Below, piece by piece: positions 7,661 through 60,913 of a stretch of DNA of 64,000 nt. The stretch is from Nanobdellota archaeon (GTDB lineage: Archaea; Nanobdellota; Nanobdellia; Woesearchaeales; GCA-2686295), in NCBI GenBank assembly GCA_018819065.1, contig JAHJQL010000017.1, forward strand, positions 35,952-99,951. The letters are read 5' to 3'. The first letter of the stretch is position 1, and each line of letters starts with the position of its first letter. A program made the translations under genes and the position numbers. The notes under the pieces are model-generated. The model did not search any database. It saw nothing but the letters and a program-made list of their open reading frames with translations, and was not told the DNA's origin.

Positions 7661-7924
7661 CTAAACGTTATCTTCGAAATGTTGGTTGTTAAAACAGTCA
7701 TCACACATACTATTATGCCAATCTTTGTTATGAGCTGAGATTTGTTTATTGCATTTTTTGCAGTTATAATTCATATCTTCATCATGTTTTTTATGGAATG
7801 TTTTCATTTTCTCTTGAATATCTTTGGGTCCTAAAGTTTCGATGAAAGCTCCGTCTTCCCAAAGTTCATCTTCATCATCTTTCAAGTTCTCTTCTTCATC
7901 CATTTTAGTACCTATTTTTATCAA
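7661..7924 (-). CDS. small Cys-rich zinc-ribbon protein
   Basis: 87 aa with CKKCNKQ...H...CDDC (C4/CHCC-type). It overlaps the 3' end of the WYL gene by 20 nt on the same strand, so they are likely co-transcribed. Confidence 0.45.
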   Translation of the reverse strand: MIKIGTKMDEEENLKDDEDELWEDGAFIETLGPKDIQEKMKTFHKKHDEDMNYNCKKCNKQISAHNKDWHNSMCDDCFNNQHFEDNV

Positions 7925-8411
7925 AGTTGTCTGGAATTGTATAATCTTTATTGGTCAATTTTACAGTAACAATCCTACTTGTTCTGAATTTTCTGATAGC
8001 TTTTCTCAAATGGCAGTAGCCAATGACATATTTTCTTGTTTTATGGTAAACATCAATTTCTCTTTTTCTTGTTTCAGCAGATGCCATATCAAAATAGCCA
8101 ATTTCAATTGTTTTTTGATTATTAAAAGCGTTTTCAATCTTTCTGTAAGCTAACTCATTAATTTCATTATTGAATGTGTCATATCTTCTCCTCAAGATAG
8201 TTTTCTTTGTTTTCTCGTTTTCCTTTTTTGGGAGTGATTTTTCTATCTTTTTTATGATTACCTTTAAACCTGTTCTATCGGCAATTTTTTCATCATAATG
8301 GTCTAATTCCCAATCTTCTGAAGGATTTACAATTAATCCTTCATCAAACACTTTTAAAATCTGATGTATTTGTACTGCTTCTTTTGTTGATAAGTTTATG
8401 GAAATATTCAT
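7905..8411 (-). CDS. WYL-domain protein (putative ligand-sensing transcriptional regulator)
   Basis: The C-terminal segment IEIGYFDMASAETRKREIDVYH..RKYVIGYCHLRKAIRKFRTSRIVTVKLT matches the WYL-domain pattern (Y..R.i.P...wYl.gyc..r...R.FRl.RI). Confidence 0.6.
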   Translation of the reverse strand: MNISINLSTKEAVQIHQILKVFDEGLIVNPSEDWELDHYDEKIADRTGLKVIIKKIEKSLPKKENEKTKKTILRRRYDTFNNEINELAYRKIENAFNNQKTIEIGYFDMASAETRKREIDVYHKTRKYVIGYCHLRKAIRKFRTSRIVTVKLTNKDYTIPDNFDKNRY

Positions 8412-8422
8412 TTTGTGGATGA

Positions 8423-9325
8423 TTATTTACTCTTGTCTTGTAATTTCTTCTTTGTTTCAGGTTCAGCCAAATAGCTCTCTCTTGATGTAACAGGACGACC
8501 TAATTCTTTCTCTGTTTCTTTTCGTGCATTGCCTGCTACTCTTCCGCCCCTTTTGGCAGCACCTTCAACTTCTTCATAACCTTGTGCATCTTCTTTTCTC
8601 GTGATTTCAGTGGATACTCTTTCTCCTAACATTGAAAATATTAACTCTAAGTCATTCATATGATCTCTCAGATTTTCTCTTTTTAATCCTTTGAATTTCT
8701 TATATTCGCTTGGAGTCATGCCAAAAGTGGCTTTTGATATTTCTGCTGTGAGTATTGCATAATTTCTTTCTTCCAAAACGCCTCTTTTTTTCCATTACAT
8801 AAAAATCATAGATTTTTAGGTTGCCAGAAAACAATGTTTTCTGAGCACATCTGTTAATTCATCTCTTATAGCAATACCTCTAACTCTTTTTTCTATCCAG
8901 TCATCAGAATATCCCTTTGCTTTGTATAGTTCTCTCATTCGTTTTTGGGCAAGTTCAGGATTCTCTATTTCCTGCACTCTCTGATAACCTACTTCTGCGA
9001 GCCATTGTTTGAAAGGCTTTGCTTTTTTAGATGGAATAGATTGTATTATCCTAAAAGCGTTTTTTGTATTGACACAATCAGTAAGATAGGATTTACCATC
9101 AGCAGATACTAATTTCAGTTGTCCGATTTTTGCGGACAACTCAAACCCTTCTTCAGTAAGCCTTTTTTTCAGGTCAGACCAGTATTTCCTTGCTCTTCCA
9201 GTTTCTGTCAATACTTCTACAATGTCAACTACTGAAAACCACCATTCATCATTAAACCAAGTCCTTCTAATCTCCTTGCCTTGAAATACCACTAATGCTT
9301 TATCAAATTTAGACATTTTTCCCAT
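8423..9325 (-). pseudogene. DinD/Bro-N-domain DNA-damage-inducible protein D homologue, disrupted by frameshift/in-frame stop
   Basis: The N-terminal ORF (8816..9325) has a Bro-N signature (FDKALVVFQGKEIRRTWFNDEWWFSVVDIVEVLT...KYW). Its frame ends ...ELTDVLRKHCFLAT*. The downstream ORF (8423..8776) begins at a TTG, and in its frame the upstream residues read WKKRGVLEERNYAILTAEISKATFGMTPSEYKKFKGL, the DinD C-terminal region. The break lies next to a T9 run (8783-8793). Confidence 0.6.
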
Positions 9326-12408: not shown

Positions 12409-12617
12409 GGGGACACCGGGACTTTCACTTACGGCTTCGAATTGCAACGCAATTCCTTCGCCCGAAGGGAAGGATTTCGTCGTCAAGGTTCTCAAAAAGC
12501 GAAGCTTTTTGGCACCTCAAAAACGATTTCTCGTTTTTGTTGGGGCGAAACCGTTGTTTTGAACCCGGGACCACTAGATCTTCAGTCTAGTGCTCTCCCA
12601 GTCTGAGCTATGTCCCC
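12409..12617 (-). tRNA. tRNA-Phe (GAA) with a 135-nt intron in the T-loop (non-canonical position 59/60)
   Basis: The 5' exon (12617..12558, minus strand) is GGGGACA TA GCTC AGACTGGGA GAGC A CTAGA CTGAAGA TCTAG TGGTC CCGGG TTCAAA. The 3' exon (12422..12409) is T CCCGG TGTCCCC A. All stems pair perfectly, the anticodon is GAA, and the mature length is 74 nt. The intron spans 12557..12423. An oligo-T run follows the 3' end. Confidence 0.85.
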
Positions 12618-22314: not shown

Positions 22315-22400
22315 CCTTTTAAAATATTATGCTAAGCCGATATGAAGTGAAACAGTATATAAATTTTTTTGTTATAAAAAAAATGAGGTTAAAAAAAAGG

Positions 22401-22559
22401 TGGGGACGGAGGGATTTGAACCCTCATCTGACGGTATCTCCACGAATGGACTCCTTTAAATCATCGGCGAAGCCTCATCGCTCCAAGTACTGGAGCCGAC
22501 CATTCTAGCCAGGATGTACCCATTTTTGTACTAAACAAAAAGGTTTATACTACGCCCCC
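22401..22559 (-). tRNA. tRNA-like gene, probably intron-rich (identity unresolved)
   Basis: On the minus strand the 3' end is a canonical T-arm and acceptor: GAGGG TTCAAAT CCCTC CGTCCCC A, then CC plus oligo-T. 159 nt upstream, GGGGGCG-UA pairs 7/7 with CGTCCCC (one G-U) and carries U8/A9. A TATA-like TTTAAATATAAAAAC lies ~27 nt upstream of that G. Between them there are ~85 extra nt, and I could not fold a unique D/anticodon arm by hand. Confidence 0.4.
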
Positions 22560-22575
22560 AACTAACAATACAGAA

Positions 22576-22600
22576 AAAGTTTTTATATTTAAAGTTAACT
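22576..22600 (-). promoter_or_regulatory. archaeal TATA/BRE-like box upstream of the tRNA-like gene
   Basis: The minus-strand TTTAAATATAAAAAC is centred ~27 nt upstream of the putative tRNA 5' end. Confidence 0.45.
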
Positions 22601-25084
22601 TCTTTTTTTCCTTGCAACTGCTCTTCGCTCGTTAAAATCCATTCTTATTCGTTTATAACCAATTATCGCAACGAAGATGAATGCTATGAACACTAAGAAC
22701 CAATTAGCATAGAAGCAAAGCTTATCATAAGCCTGAGAAAGTGTAAACTTATCCCTTCTTACAACTTCAAGAGTTATTCTTGGGCTTAGAGTGAACGCGT
22801 CGTGGTTGTCTACTGCCAGAAAAGAGACATTAGTCACGCCGTACCATCCTTGTTTTGGCATGAATACCACTTTATCTATTGTTATATCTACATTTACAAA
22901 TTCGCTTGAGTCTATGAGTGACAAGTTAACTTTGTCTCCTGCATCAGGGTCAGAAACAAAGGATGATTTTTCAACCTTGAAAGCTTTATCCTGAGCCCAG
23001 ATATAATGAGTTGAACTAGCTTTTGAATAATCTATTAATGGATTTAGAACTGGTGGGCCTATGAAGAAGTAAACTATCCAAAGCAAGATTCCTAGTATTA
23101 CTAAAAGCAACACTAAGAACAAGATGAATTTTCTCTTATTAAGCCAACCCTTCTTCTTCACAAACTTAGCAACAATTGCTAATATTATGATTGCAAATAT
23201 TAATAGTACAGTTACGAATCGGCATGGTTTTTGCGAGAAGTAAAGATATAGCTTGACATAAACAGGCTTGTCTTTGAGACTGACAATTATATTGTTTTTA
23301 TATTCAAAATCGTTGTCAGACTTTATTGTTAGGTCAAGAGTATAATCTCCAAATGGAGTTTTATCAGTGTGATTTGATAATAGTAGGATTTCTTTTGTCT
23401 CTCCTGGGTTAAGCGATAAGGTTTTTTCACTTAGTTTTATCCAGAAATCTTTTGGCTGAAGGGATAAAGAGTATTTTCCAGATTCAAGTCCTTCGTTAGT
23501 TATCTTTATTACTGCTGAGTTTTCTGTATCTCTTCTGATAGAATAAGAGGTTTTTGCTATGCTTGCTTTGTAGCAGCTCCATTGAGACAAAACAACTATG
23601 TTCTTAACCTCGTCTGATGCCTTGACACCATTTTTTAGGACTGCTTCTACCAACAATCCATAAGTTGCATCTTTATCAGGTGGATTTAAAGTAAGCACAA
23701 CATCTTTATCTTCGCCAGGCTCTAAAATTATAGAGTCAGTATCTAACTCAGCGATGGCTGGGTAAGCTTTTAAAGATATCTTTTCTTCATATAACCCCTC
23801 ATTTTTTACATTTACAACTAACTCTTTTTCTGAAGCGCAGAATCTTAAATTCTTATCAACAATAGTTATCTTTGGCTTATAACAATCAATTATATCTAAT
23901 ATAACAGTTTTTTCATTTGATATATTTCCATACCAACTTGTGGATTTGAGAGTGAAGGTATAATAACCAACTTTTACCTGTTTCAAAATAAAATTTATAT
24001 TCTCAGATTTGCTCTCATCCGAACCAAGGCTTACTTGATTAGAGGATAGTTTTACAAAAGAAGGTGCACCTATTAACTCTAAATAATACTTGTTTGGAGT
24101 ATCAACATCATTTTCAATATCAAATTCTATTGGTGCGTATTCTTCCTCACAAACTTCATGATAGTCATCAATGTCTAATGAATAATCATAAAGCTTGTTT
24201 ATGACTAGATCATGTTTGATTTCTGTTTTTAAGCGGTTATTCTCGGCCACAACTGAAAAAATGTTAGGTGTTACTCCAAAAACCGCACAAGAAGGTGTAA
24301 AGGTTGATTTGATGATTCCTTCTTCACCAGGATTTAAAAGAATTGTTTGTGAAGATAAAGTCATGTAAGGCTTATTGGTTATTGGTGTTGCTGTGTATTG
24401 TTCAGAAAATAATCCCGAGTTTTTTATCAATAATTCGTACTCTACAGATTTGCAAGGATCAATATCATCTTTGCTTGCTTTAAGTTTTACATCTAAATTT
24501 TGACATTGAGAAACTACTAATTTCTTTGTTAAAGTAGCTTCTCCATCACCAAGCAGCTTAACAGTTATCTTTAGCGTCTTATCTAAGATGTTGCAAGGAG
24601 CATTTATCTGCAGCAAGACTTCTTGAATTGCTCCGCTTTCTAATTCAAAATAAGAAGGGTTTATGCTTACAAAATCAAGGTTGGATGATAAGCTGTAAGC
24701 GACTTTCTTGTTTTCAGTATTTCTTATTTTTATTGAATCGTTAAGTTTTGAGCATGAACAAACCTTTAAATTAGCATCACCTGTGGCTGCTCCAAACTTC
24801 AAAGGAATTATTGGTGGCTTAGTAGTAATTGTCGGAGTGACTATGGTTGTAGGTGGTGTCTGTTTTGGAACATAAATAATGGTCTGTTGAGAAGGCGAAT
24901 CTGGTATGCTGACAAGATAAACTTCAAAAATTGTTTTTTCATACGGTGGCTGCACAGAGGTCACTGTTTGGTTAACCACTTCTGTATTGATTAGATTAAC
25001 TTCAAAAATCTCTGCACTTGCAAAACTAACTATGAATAGAATTGTTAAAAGAACAACTGAAAACTGTAATTGGTTTTTGTTCAT
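22595..25084 (-). CDS. large cell-surface protein (S-layer/adhesin-like) with signal peptide and membrane-spanning segments
   Basis: N-terminal signal peptide (MNKNQLQFSVVLLTILFIVSFASA), long beta-rich Thr/Ser/Asn-rich ectodomain, two internal TM helices and a C-terminal TM helix. Confidence 0.6.
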   Translation of the reverse strand: MNKNQLQFSVVLLTILFIVSFASAEIFEVNLINTEVVNQTVTSVQPPYEKTIFEVYLVSIPDSPSQQTIIYVPKQTPPTTIVTPTITTKPPIIPLKFGAATGDANLKVCSCSKLNDSIKIRNTENKKVAYSLSSNLDFVSINPSYFELESGAIQEVLLQINAPCNILDKTLKITVKLLGDGEATLTKKLVVSQCQNLDVKLKASKDDIDPCKSVEYELLIKNSGLFSEQYTATPITNKPYMTLSSQTILLNPGEEGIIKSTFTPSCAVFGVTPNIFSVVAENNRLKTEIKHDLVINKLYDYSLDIDDYHEVCEEEYAPIEFDIENDVDTPNKYYLELIGAPSFVKLSSNQVSLGSDESKSENINFILKQVKVGYYTFTLKSTSWYGNISNEKTVILDIIDCYKPKITIVDKNLRFCASEKELVVNVKNEGLYEEKISLKAYPAIAELDTDSIILEPGEDKDVVLTLNPPDKDATYGLLVEAVLKNGVKASDEVKNIVVLSQWSCYKASIAKTSYSIRRDTENSAVIKITNEGLESGKYSLSLQPKDFWIKLSEKTLSLNPGETKEILLLSNHTDKTPFGDYTLDLTIKSDNDFEYKNNIIVSLKDKPVYVKLYLYFSQKPCRFVTVLLIFAIIILAIVAKFVKKKGWLNKRKFILFLVLLLVILGILLWIVYFFIGPPVLNPLIDYSKASSTHYIWAQDKAFKVEKSSFVSDPDAGDKVNLSLIDSSEFVNVDITIDKVVFMPKQGWYGVTNVSFLAVDNHDAFTLSPRITLEVVRRDKFTLSQAYDKLCFYANWFLVFIAFIFVAIIGYKRIRMDFNERRAVARKKRS

Positions 25085-25114
25085 CGTACATGTTCTTTTG
25101 AAAAATTAAAAAAA

Positions 25115-26413
25115 TTAGTAATAGGTCTGTGTCTCCGTGTCATCATCCACGCCGCCGTTGTTCTTTCTAAGCTTGTTAAAGCCTATGATTAAGCCGACGA
25201 TTATTAGGATTATTACAAGGACAATCAGTGCTATTTCTAATCCTTTTTTCAAATCACTAGAAGATGACTTTTTTTCATCATCAGTGATTTTCACTGTTAG
25301 TGGAACTACTTTTGAGTCTTTGTCTGTTGAGACCGTCACCAAAAACATTCTTTCACCGCTAACATCTTCATTTGGAGTTATTAAAACTTCAACAGTCTTT
25401 GTCTCTCCGCCTTTTAACACTATTTGTGATCCTGGTGAAAGCATGCTTGTTCCCCAAGAGCTAACTCCTGAAACTGTCAGTGTGTATATCTTTGTTGTTG
25501 TTCCAAAGTTTGTTATGCCCATTGGGAATGAAACTTGTGAACCTTCTTTCACCTCTAGTTTTTCTGGAGCAACAATAGTTGTTTTTGATTCAGACACAGA
25601 TGATGGTGTTGTTGCTGTGCATGTGTCTCCTGGAACAACTGTTAGGTCTGTTGTTTTTGATGTTGATTCATATTCATCAAATTCAACTGTTATCTCTACT
25701 TTGTAAACTCCTGGAGCTGCGCAGTCTGGAATTCTAAGCAAGAATTCTTCTAATGTTTCTTTCTCATCTGCTTCTAACTCGTCAAGGTACTGGTAATCCA
25801 TTATGTTTAGTGCTGGAACTGCAACTTGAACTTTTACATCGTCTAAGTCTGTGTCACCAATGTTTTCAACTTTAACTGTTGCAGTAAATGCTCTTCCAGC
25901 ATTTATTACTGATGATGGACTAAATGAAAAATCTTTTATTATAACTGCATCTTCAGGATCAGTTCCTTCGACGTGTAGTTGATACATCTTTTCGAATGAT
26001 AAGCCATCTTCGTCACCAACTCTCACTCTTAGAATTGTATATTTCTTTTCCATTTTTGTTGGCACTTGAAGTGATAATGTAATTGTGTCTATGTCTCCTT
26101 GTGACATGTCAAATGTTCTTGAAGTTGCTGAGACAAGATTTTCTTCTTTATTAGCATATCTGTAACCATAAATGTCTGCTTCAACTTGAACATTTGAAAG
26201 GTTGTCGAGTGCTTGGACTCTGACTTTCAAATCAAGGTCTTGACCCCTTCTTACTTTCAAGTTGTCTGTGTGTGTTCCAACTTGAGAGCTGTTCATGCTG
26301 TCCATTTCTTCGCCGTTAATCTTTAAGTATAAAACATCTAGATTTATTGCAGCAGCGAAATTCGCAGTTAGTAAAACCGCAATCATTAAAATAAACACTT
26401 TTCCTAAATTCAT
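25115..26413 (-). CDS. cell-surface protein with CARDB/S-layer-like beta domains and C-terminal TM anchor
   Basis: ATG at 26413 gives an MNLGKVFILMIAVLLTANFAAA signal peptide. It has CARDB-like segments (VKVENIGDTDLDDVKVQVAVP), a Thr/Ser-rich stalk, a C-terminal TM IALIVLVIILIIVGLIIGF, and a basic tail. Confidence 0.6.
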   Translation of the reverse strand: MNLGKVFILMIAVLLTANFAAAINLDVLYLKINGEEMDSMNSSQVGTHTDNLKVRRGQDLDLKVRVQALDNLSNVQVEADIYGYRYANKEENLVSATSRTFDMSQGDIDTITLSLQVPTKMEKKYTILRVRVGDEDGLSFEKMYQLHVEGTDPEDAVIIKDFSFSPSSVINAGRAFTATVKVENIGDTDLDDVKVQVAVPALNIMDYQYLDELEADEKETLEEFLLRIPDCAAPGVYKVEITVEFDEYESTSKTTDLTVVPGDTCTATTPSSVSESKTTIVAPEKLEVKEGSQVSFPMGITNFGTTTKIYTLTVSGVSSWGTSMLSPGSQIVLKGGETKTVEVLITPNEDVSGERMFLVTVSTDKDSKVVPLTVKITDDEKKSSSSDLKKGLEIALIVLVIILIIVGLIIGFNKLRKNNGGVDDDTETQTYY

Positions 26414-26567
26414 TTTTACGTACCCCCTAATTTGGTTTCTTTTTTTCTTAATGTAAAAGAAAGTTCCTCGTCGAAACCCCCTATACAAACACGAAATTAA
26501 ACAAATATATAAAGCTTTCGTTTATTTCTTCATTCATCAGTGAAAACTTTTTGTTTTTATTTTCTAG

Positions 26568-29500
26568 TTAAATTATTCTTACAGGTATCTGCTTCTCCCT
26601 TCTCAAATCATCATTGCCAGTGTAAACACTAAAATAGTAATCTCCTGACTTAATGTTATTAGGTATATAAACGTATGATTTCACGCGCGTTCTCTTTTTA
26701 GCGTGAATATCAACAACACTTAATTGCTCCTTAAGTCCATACTCAGGAATCATAACACCAACTGCGATATCACTGACTTTTTTGTCAAAAGTGTTTTCTA
26801 AAGTGATTGCAACTAATGCATATTCTCCTTTTCTAACTGTGTTATAGTCATACCCATATATTGTGACATCAACTATCTTTACAGCATCACTATCCTCAAG
26901 GCCACTAACAATGGAAAACTCTCTTATATCAGTTGGGCTTTCACAACCAGGATCATCCGGGTAATCAGTTAAACCATCACCATCATTATCAACTCCATCA
27001 GAGCACTGATAATTCACAAATTCAATTACTCTTATCCTAAACAAAGCCGAAGCAGAGAATGTTCCATCAAATACAGACACGTAAAACCAGTGCTGTCCAA
27101 ACTGATCCTGGGTTGGTGTGAAACGTATAACTCCAGAAGTTGAGTTTATATTAAATAAACCAGTATCATCGCTGAAAGTTAAAGGGTCATTATTACTATC
27201 TGAAGCTTGGACTTGGTAAACGAACTCTCTTCCTATATAAGCCACTAAGTCCGCACCTAAAATTGTAGGTGGCATTGAAATTAAGTAAACAGTTAAAGTG
27301 AATGGATCACTAACAGATACTACACCATCAGAGCAACTAATAGTTATAGTGTGAGCACCACCATCTGAAACTGTTGGTGTAAAACTTATCAGTCCGGATG
27401 TTGGATTAATATTAAATAAGTTAGTGTTGTCTGAGTAAGTTATTGGGTCGCCATCAACATCACTGCAAACTACTTGGTAAGTGAAAGTTGAGTTTTCTGT
27501 AGCGTTCATGTCAGGGATTAGCTGCATAATTGGTGCGTCATTAACTGGATTAACAGTTATAGCAAACGTATTGTCTGCAGTTCCGCCATTACCATCACTA
27601 ACCCTAACAGAGCAACTAGCAACACCATTCCAATTCAAAACAGAATGTAACTTAAGAGTGTTACCAACAACCTCACAGTTAACCTGAGCAGTGTTCTCAT
27701 TAACAACAGAGAAACTCAAAACATCACCATCAGCATCAAAAACCAAAGCACTCAAATCAACAACATGAGTAAAAACACCAAAATCCTCATCCAAAGTCAC
27801 ACTTGGGATGCTGCTAGTCCAGACAGGATTATCATTCTGAGAAACAACAGAGAAAACAGCAGAGTCACTATCAGACAAACTACCAGGATCAGATGCAGTA
27901 AAAGTTATAGTCTCAAAACCAAACCAATTAGCATTTGGAACACTAATAGTAGCAACACGAGAAGGACTAATTGAAACAATCAAATCAGTATTACCAACAT
28001 AAGTCCAAGTCATTTCAGAATCAAGATTATCAACATCAGAAACATAATTATCAAGATTTATAGTTGTAAAGGTTTGACCCTCATTAACAGTCTGATCAGG
28101 AATATCAGAAACAACAGGTGCGTCGTTTACTGGATTAACAGTTATAGCAAACGTATTGTCTGCAGTTCCGCCATTACCATCACTAACCCTAACAGAGCAA
28201 CTAGCAACGCCATTCCAATTCAAAACAGAATAAAGCTTAAGAACGCTTCCAACAACCTCACAGTTAACCTGAGCAGTGTTCTCATTAACAACAGAGAAAC
28301 TCAAAACATCACCATCAGCATCAAAAACCAAAGCACTCAAATCAACAACGTGAGTAAAAACCGGGAAATCCTCATCCAAAGTCACACTTGGGATGTTACT
28401 CGTCCAAACAGGATTATCATTCTGAGAAACAACAGAGAAAACAGCAGAGTCACTATCAAACAAACCAGCAGGCGTAACATCAGTTGCAGTGAATGTTATT
28501 GTTTCTGCACCATTCCAATTATTGCTTGGGGGAGTAATGGTTACAACGTTTTGAGAGTTAACATTAACTGTCAAATCAGTGTTTCCTGAGTAAGTCCAAA
28601 CAATAGCATCACCATCAACTTCAATTAAGTAAGTATCTAAATCAAATGATGAGAATGATTGACCCTCATTAATAGTTTGATTAGGAATGTCCAAAACAAC
28701 AGGTGCATCATCAACAGGGTTGATTGTTATAGAAACTAATGCGTTGTTGCTGCTTGAGAATTGGTCTGAACATTTGTAAGTGAAACTATCAGCTCCAAAG
28801 TAATTAAGAGCAGAAGTATATATAACAGTATTGCCAACAACAGAACCTAATGATCCATGAGACGGACTTGACACAATTGAGTAAGTCAGATTATCCCCGT
28901 CAACATCAGAACAATTAAAAGTCACTTGTTTAGAAACATCTTCATTAGTTACAGCAAGTAAAGGATAAGCAACAGGTGCATCATCAACAGGATTAACTGT
29001 TATACTAACGGTGGCGACGTTACTGTAATTAAGTCCGTCAAACGCTTTGAAAGTAAATGAATCTGCTCCGTTGTAATTCTGGTTTGGAGTGTAAGTAACG
29101 TTGTTTCCCAAAAGAGTCAAAAGCACTCCATGAGTTGGCTGTGTTACTATACTATATGTTAATAGGTCATTATCTGCATCTGTTGCAACTAAAGTTATTA
29201 GTTTAGAATTGTCTTCATTTAATGAAACTGCTTGATTATAAGCAACTGGTGCGTGGTTTACTACGACTGCAGGTGTAACAACTATTGTTTTTAATGTTAG
29301 TTCCATGTCATTATCATCATCAATTACTCTAAGAGTTGTCGCGTAAGTTCCACTCTGGTTGAAAGTATATGTGGTATTTTGCGAATAGCTATCAATTGTT
29401 CCGTCACTTAAGAAGTCCCACTGGTACCTAAAAGGAGGATTTCCTTTTGTCACATTACCCCTAAACGAAACTGTCAGTGGTGCTGGTCCTGAAGCTGGAT

Positions 29501-31913
29501 TAGCAATTATCTGCGGAATTGGTCGATAATCACTAACAACTACTTCAGCAGTTGATTGCCGGTCAATAACTCCATGGCTATCTCTAACAGCGAGTCGGAA
29601 TGTCCACCAACCATTATACCGAAAAGTGTAAGTCAAATTGCTTGATGTGCTCCAATTAGTCTCAAAAAAAGGCGGGTGCTGAAGAATCCATTTATATTCT
29701 AATATGTCACCGTCAGGATCATACGAACCAGCACCTGATAAATTAATTGGAAATCCTTCAACGCCACTGTATGGTCCGCCAGCGTTTCCGATTGGAGGGT
29801 CATTAACAGGAATCACATTTATCGTAAATGTGTTATCAGCTGTTCCACCATTACCATCACTAACCCTAACAGAGCAACTAGCAACACCATTCCAATTCAA
29901 AACAGAATGTAACTTAAGAGAATTACCAACAACCTCACAATCAACCTCAGCAGTGTTTTCGTTGATAACAGAAAATGACAAGGAATCACCATCAGCATCA
30001 AACACTAAAGTCCTCAAATCAACAACGTGAGTATAAGTTCCAAAGTCTTCATTCAATATTGCGTTAGGAATACCACTTGTCCAAACAGGAGGATTATTCT
30101 GAGAAACAACAGAGAAAACAGCAGAGTCACTACCAGATAAGTGATTAGGAGTAACATCCGTTGCAGTAAAAGTAATTGTTTCTGCACCATTCCAATAAGC
30201 ACTCGGAGTTGTTATAGTTACAACATTCTGAGCATTAATACTAACAGTTAAAGCAGAGTTACCAGAATAACTCCAAACAACACTATCACCATCAACCTCA
30301 GTAAGATAACTATCCAAATCAAAAGTTGAAAAAGACTGACCTTCATTAATTGTTTGATCAGGAATACCAGAAACAACAGGAGCATCATCAACAGCAGTAA
30401 CTGTTATTAAAACGCTTGCTATATTACTGTTTGAAAAACCATCATTACACTTATAAGTAAAATTATCAGAACCAACATAGTTCTGAGATGGAGTATAAGT
30501 AACATGATTATCAACAACAAAACCCAAAGAACCATGATATGGATTTTTTGAAACAACAAAATAAGTTAATGAACCACTATCAACATCAGAACAATTAAAA
30601 ACAACCTGCTTAGAAACATCCTCATAAGTAAAAACACTAACAGGATAAGCAACAGGAGCATCATCAACTGGATTAACAGTTATAGCAAACGTATTGTCTG
30701 CTGTTCCGCCGTTGCCATCACTAACCCTAACAGAGCAACTAGCAACGCCATTCCAATTCAAAACAGAAACAAGCTTAAGAACGCTTCCAACAACCTCACA
30801 ATCAACCTGAGCAGTGTTCTCACTAACAACAGAGAAAGATAAGGAATCACCATCAACATCAGAAACTAAACTTAGCAAGTTTCCAACATGAACAACAGTT
30901 CCAAAATCCTCATCAAGATTTGCATTAGGAATGTTACTAGTCCAGACAGGAACATCATTAACTGGAGTAACAGTAATTGAAACAGCAGCAACACCACTAT
31001 CCAAAGAACCATCATTACACTTATAAGTAAAACTATCAACACTATTAAAATTCTGAGCAGGAGAATAAACAACCTTATCACCAACAACAGAACTTAAAGT
31101 TCCATGAACAGGATTTGAAACAACAAAATAAGTTAAATAATCACCATCAACGTCAAAACAATTAAAAACAACCTGCTTAGAAACATCCTCAAAAGTAAAA
31201 ACACTAACAGGATAAGCAACAGGAGCATCATTAACAGGAGTAACAGTAATTAAAACTGTTGCTGTGCTTAAACCACCATAACCATCGCTAGCTGTGTAAG
31301 TAAAACTATCAGCACCATAATAATTTGTATTTGGAGTATAATAAAGATTTGAATTTGTTTTTGTTAATGTACCGTGTGCTGGTTGTGTAAAAGAATTTAT
31401 TGATAAAACATCACCATTTGGATCAGAATCATTTAGCAATACATTAAATAAATTGTTTGAGCTATCTTCTTGAACAGTAAAAGCATCATTTCTTGCAACT
31501 GGATTTTGATTTGTTGCTGTGAATGTTAAGTAATCCCAATCACTTGAATATTGGTCACCTGCATATATTTCTATTTGATAGGTTCCAGGAGCATTGTAAT
31601 CAATTTTTTGAACTATTTGTGTTCCATTAATATTAGTAACGCCACCAACACCATTGTTTATTCCGCTCACATATGTTTTTACAACTTGTTGTTGACTGTT
31701 TAATAATTTAATACTGTAAGTTGTAGGAGGATTCATACTAAATACAGACCAAAATAAACTAACTGTTTGTCCGTTGGAAAATGATATTGTATCTCCTGAT
31801 ATTGGATTTCCATTTTGATCAAGCCATTGAATAACACCCAGTGCTGCTTGTGTTGATTGAGCAAAAAATCCTAACATAAAAAATAAAATTATAGGAAGTA
31901 TGATTTTTTTCAT
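26568..31913 (-). CDS. giant (1781 aa) secreted adhesin with tandem cadherin/VCBS-like repeats, PKD domain and Cys/Asp-rich DNDGDG motif
   Basis: Signal peptide MKKIILPIILFFMLGFFAQSTQA. Repeated modules ...SDGNGGTADNTFAITVNPVNDAPV... and ...NDAPVAYPVSVFTYEDVSKQVVFNCSDVD.. occur at least 6 times. A PKD signature RYQWDFLSDGTIDSYSQNTTYTFNQSGTYATTLRVIDDD is present, along with CSDGVDNDGDGLTDYPDDPGC near the C-terminus. Confidence 0.8.
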   Translation of the reverse strand: MKKIILPIILFFMLGFFAQSTQAALGVIQWLDQNGNPISGDTISFSNGQTVSLFWSVFSMNPPTTYSIKLLNSQQQVVKTYVSGINNGVGGVTNINGTQIVQKIDYNAPGTYQIEIYAGDQYSSDWDYLTFTATNQNPVARNDAFTVQEDSSNNLFNVLLNDSDPNGDVLSINSFTQPAHGTLTKTNSNLYYTPNTNYYGADSFTYTASDGYGGLSTATVLITVTPVNDAPVAYPVSVFTFEDVSKQVVFNCFDVDGDYLTYFVVSNPVHGTLSSVVGDKVVYSPAQNFNSVDSFTYKCNDGSLDSGVAAVSITVTPVNDVPVWTSNIPNANLDEDFGTVVHVGNLLSLVSDVDGDSLSFSVVSENTAQVDCEVVGSVLKLVSVLNWNGVASCSVRVSDGNGGTADNTFAITVNPVDDAPVAYPVSVFTYEDVSKQVVFNCSDVDSGSLTYFVVSKNPYHGSLGFVVDNHVTYTPSQNYVGSDNFTYKCNDGFSNSNIASVLITVTAVDDAPVVSGIPDQTINEGQSFSTFDLDSYLTEVDGDSVVWSYSGNSALTVSINAQNVVTITTPSAYWNGAETITFTATDVTPNHLSGSDSAVFSVVSQNNPPVWTSGIPNAILNEDFGTYTHVVDLRTLVFDADGDSLSFSVINENTAEVDCEVVGNSLKLHSVLNWNGVASCSVRVSDGNGGTADNTFTINVIPVNDPPIGNAGGPYSGVEGFPINLSGAGSYDPDGDILEYKWILQHPPFFETNWSTSSNLTYTFRYNGWWTFRLAVRDSHGVIDRQSTAEVVVSDYRPIPQIIANPASGPAPLTVSFRGNVTKGNPPFRYQWDFLSDGTIDSYSQNTTYTFNQSGTYATTLRVIDDDNDMELTLKTIVVTPAVVVNHAPVAYNQAVSLNEDNSKLITLVATDADNDLLTYSIVTQPTHGVLLTLLGNNVTYTPNQNYNGADSFTFKAFDGLNYSNVATVSITVNPVDDAPVAYPLLAVTNEDVSKQVTFNCSDVDGDNLTYSIVSSPSHGSLGSVVGNTVIYTSALNYFGADSFTYKCSDQFSSSNNALVSITINPVDDAPVVLDIPNQTINEGQSFSSFDLDTYLIEVDGDAIVWTYSGNTDLTVNVNSQNVVTITPPSNNWNGAETITFTATDVTPAGLFDSDSAVFSVVSQNDNPVWTSNIPSVTLDEDFPVFTHVVDLSALVFDADGDVLSFSVVNENTAQVNCEVVGSVLKLYSVLNWNGVASCSVRVSDGNGGTADNTFAITVNPVNDAPVVSDIPDQTVNEGQTFTTINLDNYVSDVDNLDSEMTWTYVGNTDLIVSISPSRVATISVPNANWFGFETITFTASDPGSLSDSDSAVFSVVSQNDNPVWTSSIPSVTLDEDFGVFTHVVDLSALVFDADGDVLSFSVVNENTAQVNCEVVGNTLKLHSVLNWNGVASCSVRVSDGNGGTADNTFAITVNPVNDAPIMQLIPDMNATENSTFTYQVVCSDVDGDPITYSDNTNLFNINPTSGLISFTPTVSDGGAHTITISCSDGVVSVSDPFTLTVYLISMPPTILGADLVAYIGREFVYQVQASDSNNDPLTFSDDTGLFNINSTSGVIRFTPTQDQFGQHWFYVSVFDGTFSASALFRIRVIEFVNYQCSDGVDNDGDGLTDYPDDPGCESPTDIREFSIVSGLEDSDAVKIVDVTIYGYDYNTVRKGEYALVAITLENTFDKKVSDIAVGVMIPEYGLKEQLSVVDIHAKKRTRVKSYVYIPNNIKSGDYYFSVYTGNDDLRREKQIPVRII
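27533..28700. repeat. two tandem ~583-bp near-identical coding repeats inside the adhesin gene
   Basis: ggtgcgtc...ggattaacagttatagcaaacgtattgtctgcagttccgccattaccatcactaaccctaacagagcaactagcaac... recurs at 27533 and 28116 with only a few mismatches over hundreds of bp. Confidence 0.8.
29800..30045. repeat. third copy of the adhesin module repeat (high identity to 27540-27760)
   Basis: Shares ccattaccatcactaaccctaacagagcaactagcaacaccattccaattcaaaacagaatgtaacttaagag with copy 1. Confidence 0.75.
30660..30900. repeat. fourth copy of the adhesin module repeat
   Basis: ggattaacagttatagcaaacgtattgtctgctgttccgccgttgccatcactaaccctaacagagcaactagcaacgccattccaattcaaaacag... Confidence 0.75.
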
Positions 31914-43983: not shown

Positions 43984-44198
43984 CTTCTCAGCATAACACC
44001 AATTAATGTTATTAAAAGAGTAAACAGTATAACATAAAAGAAAGACGAGCCAAACACAATCTTTTTAGAAAAAACCAGTACAAAGTATATAATTGTTGAA
44101 AACAACAAGTAAGCAGATAAAAAGCCGACTTTTTCACCAAAGCTAAAAACAAAATTGTTATTTTCAAAATCCATGAAGCAGAAGGAAAAACCACTCAT
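43971..44198 (-). CDS. small membrane protein
   Basis: 75 aa with two hydrophobic helices. It overlaps the downstream gene by 13 nt. Confidence 0.4.
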   Translation of the reverse strand: MSGFSFCFMDFENNNFVFSFGEKVGFLSAYLLFSTIIYFVLVFSKKIVFGSSFFYVILFTLLITLIGVMLRRWLR

Positions 44199-44250
44199 TA
44201 ATAAACTTTTTAGAAAAAGTTTAAATAAAAGCTTTCAATAACAATCAAAG

Positions 44251-44583
44251 TTGATGCAAATAATACAAATAATAGGAATACTATTCGCACTATTTGCGTA
44301 TAGCAGGACTATCCTAAGATTTAAAGACAAGAGAATTACAGCAAAAGAGTTCTTGTTCTGGACAATAGTGTGGGTGGGTGTGATAATTGTTGCAATAATT
44401 CCTGGAGTTATGAGTGGGCTGTCAAGATTTTTAGGAATAGGAAGACCAATCGATATAATCGTCTACGCAAGCATAATAATCTTGTTTTACTTGATATTTC
44501 GAATTTATGTTAAAATCGAAGATGTTGAGCAAAACATCACAAAGATAGTTAGAGAAACTGCAATTAGAAGAAAGAAAAAATGA
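44251..44583 (+). CDS. DUF2304-like small membrane protein
   Basis: 110 aa, 3 TM helices plus a basic tail, a family usually adjacent to glycosyltransferases. Its stop overlaps the GT4 start. Confidence 0.5.
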   Translation: MMQIIQIIGILFALFAYSRTILRFKDKRITAKEFLFWTIVWVGVIIVAIIPGVMSGLSRFLGIGRPIDIIVYASIIILFYLIFRIYVKIEDVEQNITKIVRETAIRRKKK

Positions 44584-45713
44584 ACATTTTATTTCTAACG
44601 GAATACTTTCCACAATCAGACAAAGGAGAAATATCTGGTGGAGTTGAAGCAAGATGTTTTTATCTTGCAAAAGAATTAAGTAAAAATCATAAAATCATAG
44701 TAGTAACTTCTTGGAGAAAAAGACAAAAAAGAGTTAACAAAATAGGAACAATCATTGTTGAAAGAGTTGGACCAAATCACAAATACTCAAATAAAGGAAG
44801 TATTTTCTCAAGATTATTGTTTGCAATTTATGCTTATAAAAGAGCAAAAATAAAAAAAGCAGACGTTGTTGATGGATTTAATTTCACAACTTATATTCCT
44901 GCCTATTTTGCAGCAAAAAAGATTAATGCCAAAAAGATAGCAACTTATCATGAAACTTGGGTTGGAGAATGGATAAAAAATAAAGGATTAATCACAGGAT
45001 TAATTGGTGAATTACTTGAAAGAATTACTTTAAAACTAAAATGGGATTTAATAATTGCAGTTTCTAATTTTACAAAAGAAAAACTAGAACAAACGAGCCC
45101 AGAATTAAACAAAAGAGTAGTCTACAACGGCGTTATGATGAATGACTTTGAAAAGATAAAAACTACAAAAGACGAAGGATTTAGGATTGTGTGCGTATCA
45201 AGGCTGATAAAAACCAAAAGACAAGAGACAATACTAAAAGCGCTAAAAGAACTAAAAGACGAAGAAATAACAGCAGTATTTGTTGGTGATGGAGATGATA
45301 AAGAATACTTTAAGAAAAGAATTAAAGAATTCAAATTAGAGAAACAAGTCAGATTCACAGGATTTCTAAAAACCAAAGAAGAAGTCATAAAAGAAATAAA
45401 AAAGTCACATGTATTAGTGCATCCATCTGCAGTCGAAGGATTTGGAATAACAGTAATAGAAGGAATGGCAGCAGGAGTTCCAGTGATATGCTCAGATATT
45501 GAACCATTAAAAGAAGTCACTAATAATGGACTATGCGGATTAATATTCAAACTAGATGATTACAAAGAACTAGCAGAAAAAATAAAAACATTAAAAAACG
45601 ACAAAGAAAAATATGAAGAGATGAAAGAAAAAGGGTTAAAAAGAGCGAAAGAATTTGAATGGAAAACAATAGCGAAGGAGTATGAAAAAGCAATAATAAA
45701 AAAGAGTTCATAA
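44580..45713 (+). CDS. GT4 (GT-B) glycosyltransferase
   Basis: The C-terminal EGFGITVIEGMAAGVPVICSD motif is the GT4 signature. Confidence 0.8.
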   Translation: MNILFLTEYFPQSDKGEISGGVEARCFYLAKELSKNHKIIVVTSWRKRQKRVNKIGTIIVERVGPNHKYSNKGSIFSRLLFAIYAYKRAKIKKADVVDGFNFTTYIPAYFAAKKINAKKIATYHETWVGEWIKNKGLITGLIGELLERITLKLKWDLIIAVSNFTKEKLEQTSPELNKRVVYNGVMMNDFEKIKTTKDEGFRIVCVSRLIKTKRQETILKALKELKDEEITAVFVGDGDDKEYFKKRIKEFKLEKQVRFTGFLKTKEEVIKEIKKSHVLVHPSAVEGFGITVIEGMAAGVPVICSDIEPLKEVTNNGLCGLIFKLDDYKELAEKIKTLKNDKEKYEEMKEKGLKRAKEFEWKTIAKEYEKAIIKKSS

Positions 45714-46273
45714 TGAAAGAAGAGATAAAAAAACAATTTGATGAACACATAACTGCTGTTAAGGACAATTTTGATTTGGCTGAAAAAGTTGAGAACGCTT
45801 CAAGGTTGATTATAGATGCACTTAAAAACGAGAAAAAGATTCTTATCTGCGGCAACGGCGGAAGCGCAGCAGATGCCCAGCACATAGCTGCAGAGTTAAT
45901 GGGTAAGTATGAAAAGATGAGACCAGCACTTGCTGCAGTGGCGCTGACAACAGATACAAACATGCTCACTGCTTGGAGCAACGATGACTGTTATGAAAAC
46001 GTGTTTTCAAGACAAGTCGAAGGACTTGGCGCTAAAGGAGATGTTTTAATTGGAATAAGCACATCTGGAAACTCGGAGAATATCATAAGAGCAATGACTG
46101 CTGCTAAGAAAAAAGGATTAAAAACAATCTCTTTCATTGGAAAAGACGGGGGAAATATGAAAGGACTTGCAGATGTTGAGATACACATAAAACATGACCG
46201 GACGTCAAGGGTGCAGGAGGTTCAAGAATTATGTTATCATATAATGTGCGGAGCTGTGGAGAACGCTTTTTAG
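45713..46273 (+). CDS. gmhA: sedoheptulose-7-phosphate isomerase (SIS domain)
   Basis: ILICGNGGSAADAQHIAAEL, GISTSGNSENI. 186 aa. Confidence 0.85.
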   Translation: MKEEIKKQFDEHITAVKDNFDLAEKVENASRLIIDALKNEKKILICGNGGSAADAQHIAAELMGKYEKMRPALAAVALTTDTNMLTAWSNDDCYENVFSRQVEGLGAKGDVLIGISTSGNSENIIRAMTAAKKKGLKTISFIGKDGGNMKGLADVEIHIKHDRTSRVQEVQELCYHIMCGAVENAF

Positions 46274-46310
46274 TTAACTATTTATATTCTTTTTAATTCT
46301 TAAAAAAAAG

Positions 46311-47756
46311 ATGAAAGAGAAACTCAAAAGGATAATTGGAGATTTTTCTAAGAAAAAGATTCTAATCATTGGAGACATAATGATTGACAAGTATATATAT
46401 GGTGAGGTTACTAGAATAAGCCCAGAGGCACCAGTGCAAATTGTAAAAGTAAAAAGAGAGGTTTACACGCTTGGTGGTGCTGGAAACGTAGCAAACAACA
46501 TCAGAAGCTTAGATGCAAAATCAGTTGTTGTAAGTGTAGTTGGAGAAGATAAAGAAGGCGAACTGCTAAGAAAATTGTTGAAGAACAAAGATATAAGTTT
46601 TGAACTTATTAAAACCAAGAAGCCAACCACAATAAAAACTAGGGTGATTGGACAACAACAACAACTTTTAAGGATAGACTATGAAAATATACAAGACGTT
46701 AACAGCGAACAATTATTAAAAGCAATCAAAAAAGAAATGAAGAATTGTAACGGCGTAATAATATCCGACTACGCGAAAGGAGTAGTCACAAAAGAACTTG
46801 TAAAAACGGTTGTTTTGCTAGCAGGAAAAAAGCCCGTTGTGATTGATCCAAAACACAAGGAGCTTGATTATTACAAGAACGCAACCATCATCACTCCAAA
46901 CGAGAAAGAAGCGTATGAATTAAGCAATTTAGATCTAAAAATAGATTTAAAAGAAGTAATAACTCATCTTGAAAACAAGCTAAACTGCAAAGTAATAGTT
47001 ACAAGAGGCGAAAAAGGGATTAGTTTTTTAAAAGAAGGAAAACAAATAGATGTACCAACAATAGCAAGAGAAGTCTACGACGTATCAGGCGCCGGCGACA
47101 CAGTGATAAGTGCATTGACGCTGGCTGTTTGCTCAGGAGCAGATTTAGAAGAAGCAGCGCTAATAGCAAACCAGGCAGCAGGGATAGTTGTTGGAAAGTT
47201 TGGAACTGCAACAACCACAAGAAAAGAATTATTGTTCGGGTTTGAGAAGATGAACGCAAAGATAAAAACAAGAGAAGAAATCATCCAGATAAGAAAAGAA
47301 CTAAAGAAAAAAGGTAAAAAAGTGGTGTTTACAAACGGCTGCTTTGACATACTACACATCGGACACGTAAGGCTACTTCAAAAAGCAAAGGAGTATGGCG
47401 ACGTATTAATACTAGGATTAAACACTGACGCATCGGTAAGAAGGCTAAAAGGACCAAGCAGACCAGTGAATAACCAAGAGGACAGGGCAGAAGTCATATC
47501 AGGACTAGAAAGTGTTGATTATATAGTATTCTTTGGCGAAGACACACCTGTAGAGATAATTAAGAAGCTAAAACCAGACGTGCATGTAAAAGGAGGAGAT
47601 TACAACCCACATGATTACAAACAAATGCCAGAAGCAAAGACAGTACATGAATATGGAGGAGTTGTAGAGATAATAAAACTAACAGATGGAAAGTCAACGA
47701 CAAACATAATTAATAAGATGAATTTTCTCCACAACGAAAAGAGTAGTTCACACTAA
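46311..47756 (+). CDS. hldE: bifunctional D-glycero-beta-D-manno-heptose-7-phosphate kinase / heptose-1-phosphate adenylyltransferase
   Basis: pfkB kinase domain (LGGAGNVANN, DVSGAGDTVISAL) plus a cytidylyltransferase domain (VVFTNGCFDILHIGHVRLL). The present C-terminus KMNFLHNEKSSSH appears non-native; see the remnant at 49429..49512. Confidence 0.85.
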   Translation: MKEKLKRIIGDFSKKKILIIGDIMIDKYIYGEVTRISPEAPVQIVKVKREVYTLGGAGNVANNIRSLDAKSVVVSVVGEDKEGELLRKLLKNKDISFELIKTKKPTTIKTRVIGQQQQLLRIDYENIQDVNSEQLLKAIKKEMKNCNGVIISDYAKGVVTKELVKTVVLLAGKKPVVIDPKHKELDYYKNATIITPNEKEAYELSNLDLKIDLKEVITHLENKLNCKVIVTRGEKGISFLKEGKQIDVPTIAREVYDVSGAGDTVISALTLAVCSGADLEEAALIANQAAGIVVGKFGTATTTRKELLFGFEKMNAKIKTREEIIQIRKELKKKGKKVVFTNGCFDILHIGHVRLLQKAKEYGDVLILGLNTDASVRRLKGPSRPVNNQEDRAEVISGLESVDYIVFFGEDTPVEIIKKLKPDVHVKGGDYNPHDYKQMPEAKTVHEYGGVVEIIKLTDGKSTTNIINKMNFLHNEKSSSH

Positions 47757-47762
47757 TATAAA

Positions 47763-49103: not shown

Positions 49104-49387
49104 AAAAGAACTACAGGCATTATGATCAAGAAAAATTTCTAGAAGCCCTTGAAAACATAGATAAGAAAAAAACTAATAAAATACTAGATTTAGGTTCTGG
49201 CAAGGGAGATTTCACACATGAAATACAGTCAGTATTCAAAGGTTCTAGGATAACTGCAACAAAGATATATAAATGGCTTTACAAGAAACGACTTAAAATA
49301 TTTACTAGAACAGCACAAATTTACAATAGAAAAAGGTCTTGTTACAAAGGTTTTTTTATCAGAAAACAAACACATACCGCTGCTTGA
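49100..49387 (+). pseudogene. truncated class-I SAM methyltransferase fragment
   Basis: Only motif I (ILDLGSGKGDFT) is present and the ORF is 95 aa. It overlaps the Schlafen-like gene stop by 4 nt. Confidence 0.4.
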
Positions 49388-49428
49388 AAAAATAATACCC
49401 AAAATAGCACTATCACAAATATAGATTT

Positions 49429-49512
49429 ATGAAAGAAAATGATGGAGAAGTAAGACTTGTAAAACTAATAGAAGGAAAATCAACGACAAACATAATTAAT
49501 AAAATAAAATGA
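49429..49512 (+). pseudogene. remnant of the original 3' end of hldE
   Basis: Encodes MKENDGEVRLVKLIEGKSTTNIINKIK*, aligning to the hldE C-terminal GGVVEIIKLTDGKSTTNIINK. 23 nt (tcaacgacaaacataattaataa) are identical to 47699-47721. Its TGA overlaps the hldD ATG. Confidence 0.6.
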
Positions 49513-50456: not shown

Positions 50457-50488
50457 ATTATTAGAATAAATTTCAAGTTCATAAAATA

Positions 50489-51487: not shown

Positions 51488-51510
51488 AAATAAATTTCAG
51501 ATGTGCTAAA

Positions 51511-54970: not shown

Positions 54971-54972
54971 AA

Positions 54973-58268: not shown

Positions 58269-58272
58269 AAAC

Positions 58273-59904: not shown

Positions 59905-59913
59905 AAAAATAGA

Positions 59914-60615: not shown

Positions 60616-60696
60616 GATTTTAAAAATGATATATCTTTTATAAATCTCCTTATTTTATTATTGTGCTAGAATGCAGATTATGCAAAAAAAAAGAAT

Positions 60697-60897: not shown

Positions 60898-60913
60898 AAT
60901 CAATAAACTATTA

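Follow-up and report, generated by a model that had tools for sequence, protein, structure and literature searches.

Multi-intron tRNA genes are already well known in archaea. The tRNA-Glu(UUC) gene of Methanopyrus kandleri, for example, combines a D-loop intron at 20b/21, which is excised from a motif of the relaxed HBh′ type, with a canonical intron at 37/38 (PMC5829648), and a tRNA-Thr gene of Aeropyrum pernix represents another multi-intron case (PMC5829648; PMC4090602). Splicing endonucleases (EndA) with a broad specificity have been documented (PMC5829648; PMC3488258), and the incomplete tRNA sets of DPANN genomes point to disrupted tRNA genes that have remained undetected (PMC5829648). 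The introns of archaeal tRNA-Trp genes have attracted attention of their own, as they nest a box C/D RNA that guides the formation of Cm34 and Um39, and as the excised intron persists as a stable circle (PMC4090602; PMC7994747; PMC3326292). In the classical arrangement, which has been tabulated for 29 archaea, the elements follow each other in the order C - guide39 - D′ - loop - C′ - guide34 (..UUGGAGCN) - D (CUGA) - terminal stem (PMC2584109, supplementary file 4). Here, we describe a tRNA-like locus of 159 nucleotides (nt) on the minus strand of a stretch of 64,000 nt from contig JAHJQL010000017.1, which was analysed as a whole and is referred to as the window. As judged from the sequence, this locus is very probably a tRNA-Trp(CCA) gene of a DPANN-type (Nanobdellati) archaeon, with one intron between tRNA positions 15 and 16 (15/16) and a second one at the canonical site 37/38.

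The original prediction had pointed to an unusual tRNA at this place, and all the elements that it named are indeed present in the sequence. The T-arm, GAGGG-UUCAAAU-CCCUC (22425-22409), is directly followed by the 3′ strand of the acceptor stem (CGUCCCC, 22408-22402) and by the discriminator A at 22401. The 5′ strand GGGGGCG (22559-22553), which continues into U8 and A9 up to 22551, pairs with this 3′ strand at 7/7 positions, including a G5·U68 wobble. Even when up to 2 mismatches were allowed, the T-arm had no other match in the window, the number expected by chance being 0.01, and the acceptor stem is 100% paired across 46 relatives of the gene that were compared after splicing in silico. 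The prediction had also noted a TATA-like box upstream of G1, which was recovered (Table 1), and some 85 surplus nucleotides that implied at least two introns. These nucleotides correspond to two introns of 31 and 54 nt, the latter being located in the anticodon loop.

Upon removal of the two introns, which are both flanked by helices and bulges of the bulge-helix-bulge (BHB) kind, a consistent cloverleaf was obtained. The spliced product of 74 nt was called as tRNA-Trp(cca) by ARAGORN at default settings, and when intron 1 alone was deleted, the same program reported a tRNA-Trp with a 54-nt canonical intron, i(40,54). The spliced 74-mer holds U8, A14, A15 (with U48), G18 and G19, A21, G26, U33, CCA and the T-loop UUCAAAU. 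Its anticodon, which the original prediction had left unassigned, is CCA (Trp). Specifically, the motif CUCCAG at gene nucleotides 65-70 supplies C32, U33, C34, C35, A36 and G37, and the preceding GUCGG pairs with CCGUC, so that the anticodon arm after removal of intron 2 reads GUCGG-CUCCAGA-CCGUC with one U28·U42 mismatch. The true D-arm, GUAU-AACCUGGCUA-GAAU, is only formed after removal of intron 1 by the joining of exons 1 and 2, and its stem consists of a G·U pair, a U-A pair, an A·A mismatch and a U·G pair.

The boundaries of intron 1 were set by comparison with an orthologue and with more than 30 further relatives in which the D-arm is uninterrupted. The orthologue is located on a contig of "Nanobdellati archaeon NIOZ-UU113" (L070), Nanobdellati being the DPANN kingdom. 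Its tRNA-Trp gene starts with GGGGGCGTAGTATAACCTGGCTAGAATGG, which is exon 1 of the window joined to exon 2 without a D-loop intron, and its first 15 nt are identical to exon 1. In the window gene, the exon 1-exon 2 junction joins GUAUAA to CCUGGCUAGAAU. The resulting sequence, GUAUAACCUGGCUAGAAUGG, equals that of the L070 orthologue and matches the more than 30 uninterrupted relatives. Shifting the cut by 1 nt at either site produces a D-loop that is found in no relative, which makes the junction unambiguous. A boundary giving an intron of 30 nt was discarded, as the corresponding D-loop (AAACC) occurs in no relative and as the bulge geometry does not fit. When versions of the locus lacking one segment were submitted to ARAGORN with introns permitted, 258 solutions were obtained, many of them with spurious identities (Leu, Phe, Ser, Thr, Stop). 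This approach was not decisive alone, and the Trp solution was chosen from its results by BHB geometry and by the orthologues.

These comparisons also correct two details of the original prediction. The first intron, which had been placed directly after position 9, is actually situated at 15/16 in the D-loop. Likewise, the stretch GTAC-AAAAATGG-GTAC, proposed as a candidate D-arm, does exist but belongs to intron 1. Its 3′ GUAC is the intron strand that pairs with nucleotides 10-13 of the D-stem, and the relatives without the intron lack the stretch entirely, which rules it out as a D-arm.

The central helix H at intron 1 is formed by G10-U13 and the GUAC at intron positions -6 to -3 (gene nucleotides 41-44). 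The 5′ splice site, AA↓A (the arrow marking the cut), lies in the 3-nt bulge A14 A15↓A16 between the 4-bp helix H and the inner helix h′, while the 3′ site reads AU↓C. The inner helix starts with CC/GG and continues with 7 bp, UUUUUGU/ACAAAAA, in a predicted hairpin. A comparable intron of 17-32 nt was found at the same 15/16 site in six relatives (L095, L118, L124, L142, L176 and L223). In these genes, the 5′ bulge is AA↓A or AA↓U, the helix strand is GUAC, GUAG or GUAA, and the 3′ bulge has the form A-N↓Y. Their inner helices covary, with the combinations CC/GG, CCAU/AUGG, CCAUC/GAUGG, GGAUU/AAUCC and GGA/UCC.

The relatives were collected by two pattern scans, which together yielded 135 tRNA-Trp(CCA) genes, 108 of them unique. 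The scan of genome contigs returned mostly tRNA-Pro and other tRNAs of Nitrosopumilaceae, and it was the more specific pattern applied to metagenomes that gave the useful set. When the cloverleaf was imposed on the 46 spliced relatives, 96.8% of the stem positions were paired versus 84.3% in shuffles, and registers that had been slid along the sequence reached at most 53.4%. Compensatory changes were seen in all four stems: ten pairs had changed on both sides, amounting to 118 cells versus 26.6 in shuffles, and the observed covariation score was reached by none of 500 shuffles. The loop CUCCAGA was invariant in the 46 relatives. Furthermore, L070 shows collinearity with three sections of the window (12.6-14.5, 18.7-19.7 and 20.5-22.8 kb), the nucleotide identity being 67-72%, and the single tRNA-Trp gene of L070 is syntenic with the one described here.

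The closest tRNA-Trp genes belong to metagenome-assembled genomes (MAGs) of Woesearchaeota and Nanoarchaeia, to AT-rich metagenome contigs and to two MAGs of Methanosarcinales. A thaumarchaeal host, which the GC content and an S-layer match had suggested, was rejected in view of the synteny and of these closest genes, and also because the thaumarchaeal tRNA-Trp genes have a D-arm and an intron unlike those of the window gene. Several of them (e.g., L006, L020, L061 and L182) possess second introns of their own, namely a D-loop insert of ∼30-34 nt in Nitrososphaerales and an anticodon-stem insert of ∼19-22 nt in the marine representatives. These second introns adjoin a canonical intron with a conserved kink-turn, xUGA-CACG..CGUG-GAUGA, and a UUGGAGC guide that is placed on the 3′ side. 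The window itself is archaeal, as it encodes the RFC large subunit, a YchF-like GTPase, the oligosaccharyl transferase STT3 and a class II aminoacyl-tRNA synthetase. Its GC content is ∼34%, and many of its open reading frames (ORFs) have no family match.

The 3′ boundary of intron 2 was set by the pairing of the anticodon stem. The intron ends in GGAG-AU, and the GGAG at positions -6 to -3 pairs at 4/4 positions with C32-C35. Bulges of 3 nt are present on both sides (A36 G37↓U and A U↓A38). The outer helix h is the anticodon stem itself and the inner helix h′ comprises just 2 bp (A72-U118 and C73-G117). A perfect central helix of the BHB was encountered in 2/43 related introns, the window copy included. 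As a side observation, 27/43 of these introns (loci L008-L238) end in ..GAAGAW↓ and keep the GA at positions -6/-5 despite a C34·A mismatch in the BHB.

Apart from its splicing motif, intron 2 contains a candidate box C/D guide module. The 5′ part of the intron reads UAC-UUGGAGC-G-AUGA-[GGC UUC GCC]-GAU-GA-UUU. Here, the antisense element UUGGAGC faces the anticodon arm in such a way that, counting upstream from AUGA, the fifth nucleotide is the G opposite C34, in agreement with the spacing rule for box C/D guides. The AUGA box would form part of a kink-turn, in which the hairpin provides the canonical stem and is followed by tandem G·A/A·G pairs, U·U and A-U. Supporting this idea, 43 unique related introns have the motif GGAG-N4-GA close to their 5′ end with invariant spacing, and the kink-turn layout (NNGA, a stem of at least 2 bp, 3 nt and GA) was present in 43/43 of these introns versus 21.5% of shuffles. 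The stem of the kink-turn covaries (GGC/GCC, GCC/GGC, GUC/GAC, GCU/AGC and others) and its loops are often GNRA. Stem pair 1 is G-C in 38/43 introns, pair 2 is CG in 26, GC in 11 and UA in 4, and pair 3 is CG in 18, UA in 10, AU in 4 and UG in 4. The bulge is GAU, AAU or UAU in 40/43, with U·U plus A-U as the commonest non-canonical pairs. As the D-type box, 25 introns have AUGA, 10 have UUGA and 4 have CUGA. The antisense duplex with the anticodon arm measures 6-7 bp in 39/43 introns, and the intervening hairpin loop 3-5 nt in 35/43. The arrangement UUGGAGC-N-NUGA is identical to the unit of guide34 and box D that is listed for 29 archaea (PMC2584109, supplementary file 4). From these comparisons, we consider with moderate confidence that intron 2 works like the C/D guide of tRNA-Trp, though not as a proven member of the classical family.

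With regard to expression signals, the TATA-like motif starts at -31 to -38 in 33/43 related tRNA-Trp genes and at -34 in the window copy, and the L070 orthologue carries AACTTTAAATAT in the promoter position that matches the window box. At the other end of the gene, the run of eight T residues is a probable archaeal transcription stop, and T-rich trailers are found 3′ of most related tRNA-Trp genes. The CCA end is absent from the genomic sequence of the locus. The raw locus was called neither by ARAGORN nor by Rfam at the gathering threshold, as the gene is missed by standard tRNA finders because two introns interrupt it. The sole tRNA that these tools called in the window was a "tRNA-Phe" at 12542-12617.

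Table 1. Coordinates of the features in the window (position 1 is the first nucleotide of the window; numbering of tRNA positions is conventional).
Feature	Position	Strand	Sequence and remarks
TATA-like promoter box	22593-22586	minus	TTTAAATA; -34 to -27 from G1 (mature 5′ end)
tRNA-Trp(CCA) gene (very probable)	22559-22401	minus	acceptor 5′ strand to discriminator, exactly 159 nt
Exon 1	22559-22545	minus	15 nt, tRNA positions 1-15; GGGGGCG, U8 A9, D-stem 5′ strand GUAU, A14 A15
Intron 1	22544-22514	minus	31 nt, non-canonical 15/16; gene nucleotides 16-46; relaxed HBh′ motif
Exon 2	22513-22490	minus	24 nt, tRNA positions 16-37; D-loop remainder CCUGGCUA, GAAU, G26, GUCGG, CUCCAG
Anticodon CCA (Trp)	22493-22491	minus	after U33; ARAGORN on the spliced sequence: tRNA-Trp(cca)
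Intron 2	22489-22436	minus	54 nt, canonical 37/38; strict hBHBh′ motif
Antisense element	22486-22480	minus	UUGGAGC; complementary to G31-G37, 7 bp
Predicted kink-turn module	22478-22458	minus	AUGA (D-type), hairpin GGC-UUC-GCC, bulge GAU, (A)UGAUUU (C-type)
Exon 3	22435-22401	minus	35 nt, tRNA positions 38-73; A38, CCGUC, variable loop AGAU (4 nt), T-arm, CGUCCCC, A
Terminator (probable), eight-T run	22398-22391	minus	after 2-nt trailer CC (22400-22399)
tRNA-Phe, true gene	12617-12408	minus	G1 = 12617 to A59 = 12558, intron, TCCCGGTGTCCCCA (12421-12408), T-run
tRNA-Phe T-loop intron	12557-12422	minus	136 nt, 59/60; strict BHB

Several observations weigh against the view that the locus is an intact tRNA-Trp gene with two introns, and some of them could be taken to indicate a decaying tRNA-Trp pseudogene in which the D-loop insert is never removed and the stem mismatches mark early decay. 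Among the 46 relatives, the U28·U42 mismatch is confined to the window copy, and the A12·A23 mismatch weakens the D-stem of the mature tRNA. The cloverleaf of the unmodified 74-mer is not its minimum-energy fold (-21.0 versus -29.4 kcal/mol), and the splicing-competent fold of the precursor lies 11 kcal/mol above the minimum-energy fold. At intron 1, an exonic helix closing the 3′ bulge is not possible in 7/7 genes (positions 6-9 against the 4 nt after the bulge), and because of this its motif is a relaxed HBh′ and not a strict one. Also, the window spans only 64 kb, and another tRNA-Trp gene may be present elsewhere. However, the A12·A23 mismatch is common to 10/46 relatives, the others having A-U, G-C or U-A, and the U28·U42 mismatch looks like an intermediate between two paired states because relatives have either A28-U42 or U28-A42. 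The locus has kept its promoter box and T-run, none of the invariant tRNA nucleotides has been lost and the canonical BHB is perfect, and the locus is syntenic with the single tRNA-Trp gene of L070. Moreover, the ends of the insert are conserved as in six independent relatives and the inner helices covary, and this argues for selection on structure instead of decay. A pseudogene is therefore an improbable explanation. Even less credit can be given to a transfer-messenger RNA (tmRNA) or another tRNA-like non-coding RNA. In a local search in E-value mode, Rfam did report the tmRNA family RF00023 on 22398-22484 with 23.3 bits and E = 1.1e-07, and this was the best Rfam match on the raw sequence. 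Yet, this score is half of the gathering score of 47, the alignment covers the acceptor stem and T-arm only with 304 model positions being skipped, ARAGORN reports no tmRNA, and the host is archaeal in view of its RFC large subunit and STT3 genes. After splicing, the sequence is that of a standard tRNA-Trp with which the orthologues agree, and the tmRNA reading is refuted by this cloverleaf and these orthologues. The original prediction had itself raised two further alternatives, a split, permuted or rearranged tRNA and a tRNA 3′ remnant at the attachment site of a mobile element. While it is true that the standard tools fail on the locus and that split tRNAs exist in DPANN archaea (PMC4090602), the three exons are collinear within 159 nt. 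The locus is not split or permuted, because its exons follow each other in the normal order on one strand, with a single promoter and a single terminator. Neither is it an attachment-site remnant, because it has the full 5′ half, the promoter and the terminator and because its neighbouring genes are in synteny with L070; in addition, no integrase was detected adjacent to the tRNA-Trp locus. We regard a split gene or a remnant as extremely unlikely, and a two-intron tRNA-Trp gene as the reading to be retained.

A different matter is whether the module in intron 2 serves as a guide. It is possible, though in our estimation somewhat unlikely, that the two-intron tRNA-Trp is real but that the kink-turn is not part of a methylation guide. 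It could instead be a structural or L7Ae-binding element that aids the folding of the intron or stabilises the circle, with the GGAG repeats being present only for the sake of the BHB. A number of findings speak for this possibility and against the guide. The antisense stretch of the window intron extends over only 7 bp, and three GGAG copies are present in this intron, each of which is able to pair with CUCC. A second box pair (C′/D′) is not evident in intron 2, which shows one kink-turn only. Efficient archaeal C/D methylation normally requires both box pairs. The guide34 plus D unit is located at the 5′ end of the intron and not at its 3′ end, so that the order of the elements differs from the classical one. 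Concerning position 39, the window intron lacks an antisense stretch of at least 6 nt to the 3′ junction plus positions 38-43, and such a stretch was seen in 7/42 related introns, the longest ones. None of the Rfam C/D families matched the locus, and no family match to L7Ae, Nop5 or fibrillarin was obtained among the 36 larger ORFs of the window that were scanned, which represent about half of the ORFs of at least 110 amino acids (aa). On the other hand, the GGAG-N4-GA spacing is fixed in all 43 introns and puts C34 at exactly the five-nucleotide distance upstream of the box that the C/D rule demands, the UUGGAGC-N-NUGA arrangement is a classical guide34 plus box D unit, and the BHB requires only the 3′-terminal GGAG but not the 5′ copy. 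If the intron is indeed a guide, it could be a naturally occurring circular permutation of the classical guide, or else a single-kink-turn guide acting in cis via the hairpin loop of 3-5 nt, in DPANN and in the tRNA-Trp genes of some Methanosarcinales. This proposal is rather doubtful and is put forward tentatively. In the permutation scheme, the guide34 plus D unit may open the intron, with the terminal stem closed into a hairpin and box C coming next, and a 3′-terminal C′-like UGAAGA may adjoin guide34 plus D, with a spacer of ∼12 nt, only after circularisation. In this scheme, the ..UGAAGAU↓ ending of related introns may be a C′-like box that is read across the circularisation junction; this is contradicted by the lack of conservation at position -7 and of a recognisable D′ partner. 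A terminal box C at the 3′ end of the intron (NUGAAGA) was rejected on the same two grounds and on the ground that the window has GG instead of GA, its copy reading GUGGAGA where related introns have the possible C′ UGAAGA. A second kink-turn at the GGUAUG-hairpin element of long related introns was rejected as well, since it has no G·A tandem.

For a tRNA-Trp gene with two introns, processing could proceed as follows. Transcription would start a few nucleotides upstream of G1 and would give rise to a precursor of about 160-170 nt. In a first and less confident step, intron 2 would fold back on the anticodon loop by pairing of UUGGAGC with G31-G37. In an equally less confident step, the kink-turn (NNGA, hairpin, RUGAU) would recruit L7Ae together with Nop5-fibrillarin, leading to 2′-O-methylation of C34. 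As the guide fold and the splicing fold would be mutually exclusive, the precursor would then refold into the BHB. Each splice site would be exposed in a 3-nt bulge beside a 4-bp helix, and EndA would cut after the second bulge nucleotide at the four sites. The exons would be joined and the introns circularised by an RtcB-type ligase. Finally, the ends would be trimmed by RNase P and a 3′ nuclease, and the CCA-adding enzyme would supply the CCA. Since the motif of the D-loop intron is only of the relaxed HBh′ type, the host should have an EndA of broad specificity, as deduced from this motif. The EndA family was not detected among the 36 larger window ORFs that were scanned.

The tRNA-Phe(GAA) gene, which is likewise on the minus strand, also turned out to be interrupted. 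Its call by ARAGORN and Rfam (36 bits) has a false 3′ end, and the true gene extends beyond an intron in the T-loop (Table 1). The BHB of this intron has the T-stem as its outer helix and AA↓A and AG↓U as its bulges, with UUCA(54-57) being paired to UGAA. The 210-nt precursor has a predicted fold of -85.9 kcal/mol (z = -6.4). With 136 nt, the intron is longer than the range of 11-129 nt given in PMC4090602, and an Rfam search inside it revealed nothing known. The tRNA-Phe gene of L070 has a D-loop intron of ∼40 nt and is without the T-loop intron. Thus, tRNA-Trp and tRNA-Phe carry different non-canonical introns in the window and in L070, and this indicates a rapid gain and loss of introns.

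Some other features of the window were recorded as well. Directly upstream of the tRNA-Trp gene, at 22595-31913 on the minus strand, large ORFs of 829, 457 and 1781 aa are located, which have only weak matches to S-layer or surface proteins (a PACE-CTERM-type putative S-layer protein and choice-of-anchor T). The stop codon of the 829-aa ORF is 1 nt away from the TATA-like box of tRNA-Trp. At 7905-9325, on the same strand, adjoining small ORFs contain a WYL domain and a BRO-N domain, as are typically encountered in mobile elements or viruses and in defence regulation. A block of low GC content at 44000-62400 (25-28% at 48-60 kb) displays a strong positive GC and AT skew and may be a horizontally acquired island. 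It encodes a cluster for sugar modification and polysaccharides, including GT4 and GT9 glycosyltransferases, an epimerase, a PfkB-cytidylyltransferase fusion, two B12-binding radical SAM proteins and a flippase. At 47763-49103, the block also contains the gene for a Schlafen/AlbA_2-HATPase_c_4 protein.

The relevance of the locus is in part a practical one. Tryptophan is specified by one codon only and is normally served by just one tRNA gene. A genome annotated by ARAGORN or Rfam alone would seem to lack tRNA-Trp here and would have a false 3′ end assigned to its tRNA-Phe. Such errors distort estimates of completeness and any inference about the genetic code in DPANN genomes. In addition, the locus is a clear-cut case of an intron recently gained or lost, the tRNA-Trp of L070 being without the D-loop intron and its tRNA-Phe having one. 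With respect to intron 2, the kink-turn and C34-antisense module of tRNA-Trp introns, as predicted here, would reach into DPANN in a rearranged form. If true, a permuted guide or a guide in cis bears on the old question of whether the guide in the tRNA-Trp intron acts in cis or as a circle in trans. The locus leaves the current understanding of archaeal tRNA splicing unchanged, and the guide module, with its rearrangement within the intron, is a variant of mild interest.

In comparison with known systems, intron 2 resembles the guide in the pre-tRNA-Trp of euryarchaea such as Haloferax volcanii, Pyrococcus and Methanosarcina (PMC2584109; PMC4090602; PMC3326292) in the identity of the tRNA, the position of the intron, its unusual length and the UUGGAGC antisense element. 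The two also share the location of C34 five nucleotides upstream of an NUGA box and a kink-turn with a RUGAU box, which is predicted in the present case. In contrast to the euryarchaeal guide, the window intron has guide34 and the D-type box at its 5′ end, a closed hairpin in place of the terminal stem with the C-type box after this hairpin, no clear second box pair and no guide for position 39. As concerns the host, the situation is similar to that in ARMAN-2 and Nanoarchaeum equitans (PMC3488258; PMC5829648), which are also DPANN archaea with many non-canonical introns, relaxed BHB motifs and tRNA sets that appear incomplete to gene finders. Unlike these two, the host belongs to another lineage, its closest syntenic match being a Nanobdellati MAG. 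Finally, the combination of a D-loop intron with a relaxed HBh′ motif and an intron at 37/38 with a strict BHB, together with the expected EndA of broad specificity, aligns the window gene with tRNA-Glu(UUC) of M. kandleri and tRNA-Thr of A. pernix. It differs from these two genes in being specific for Trp, in having its D-loop intron at 15/16, in its DPANN-type host and in the central helix, which is built from the 5′ strand of the D-stem (nucleotides 10-13).

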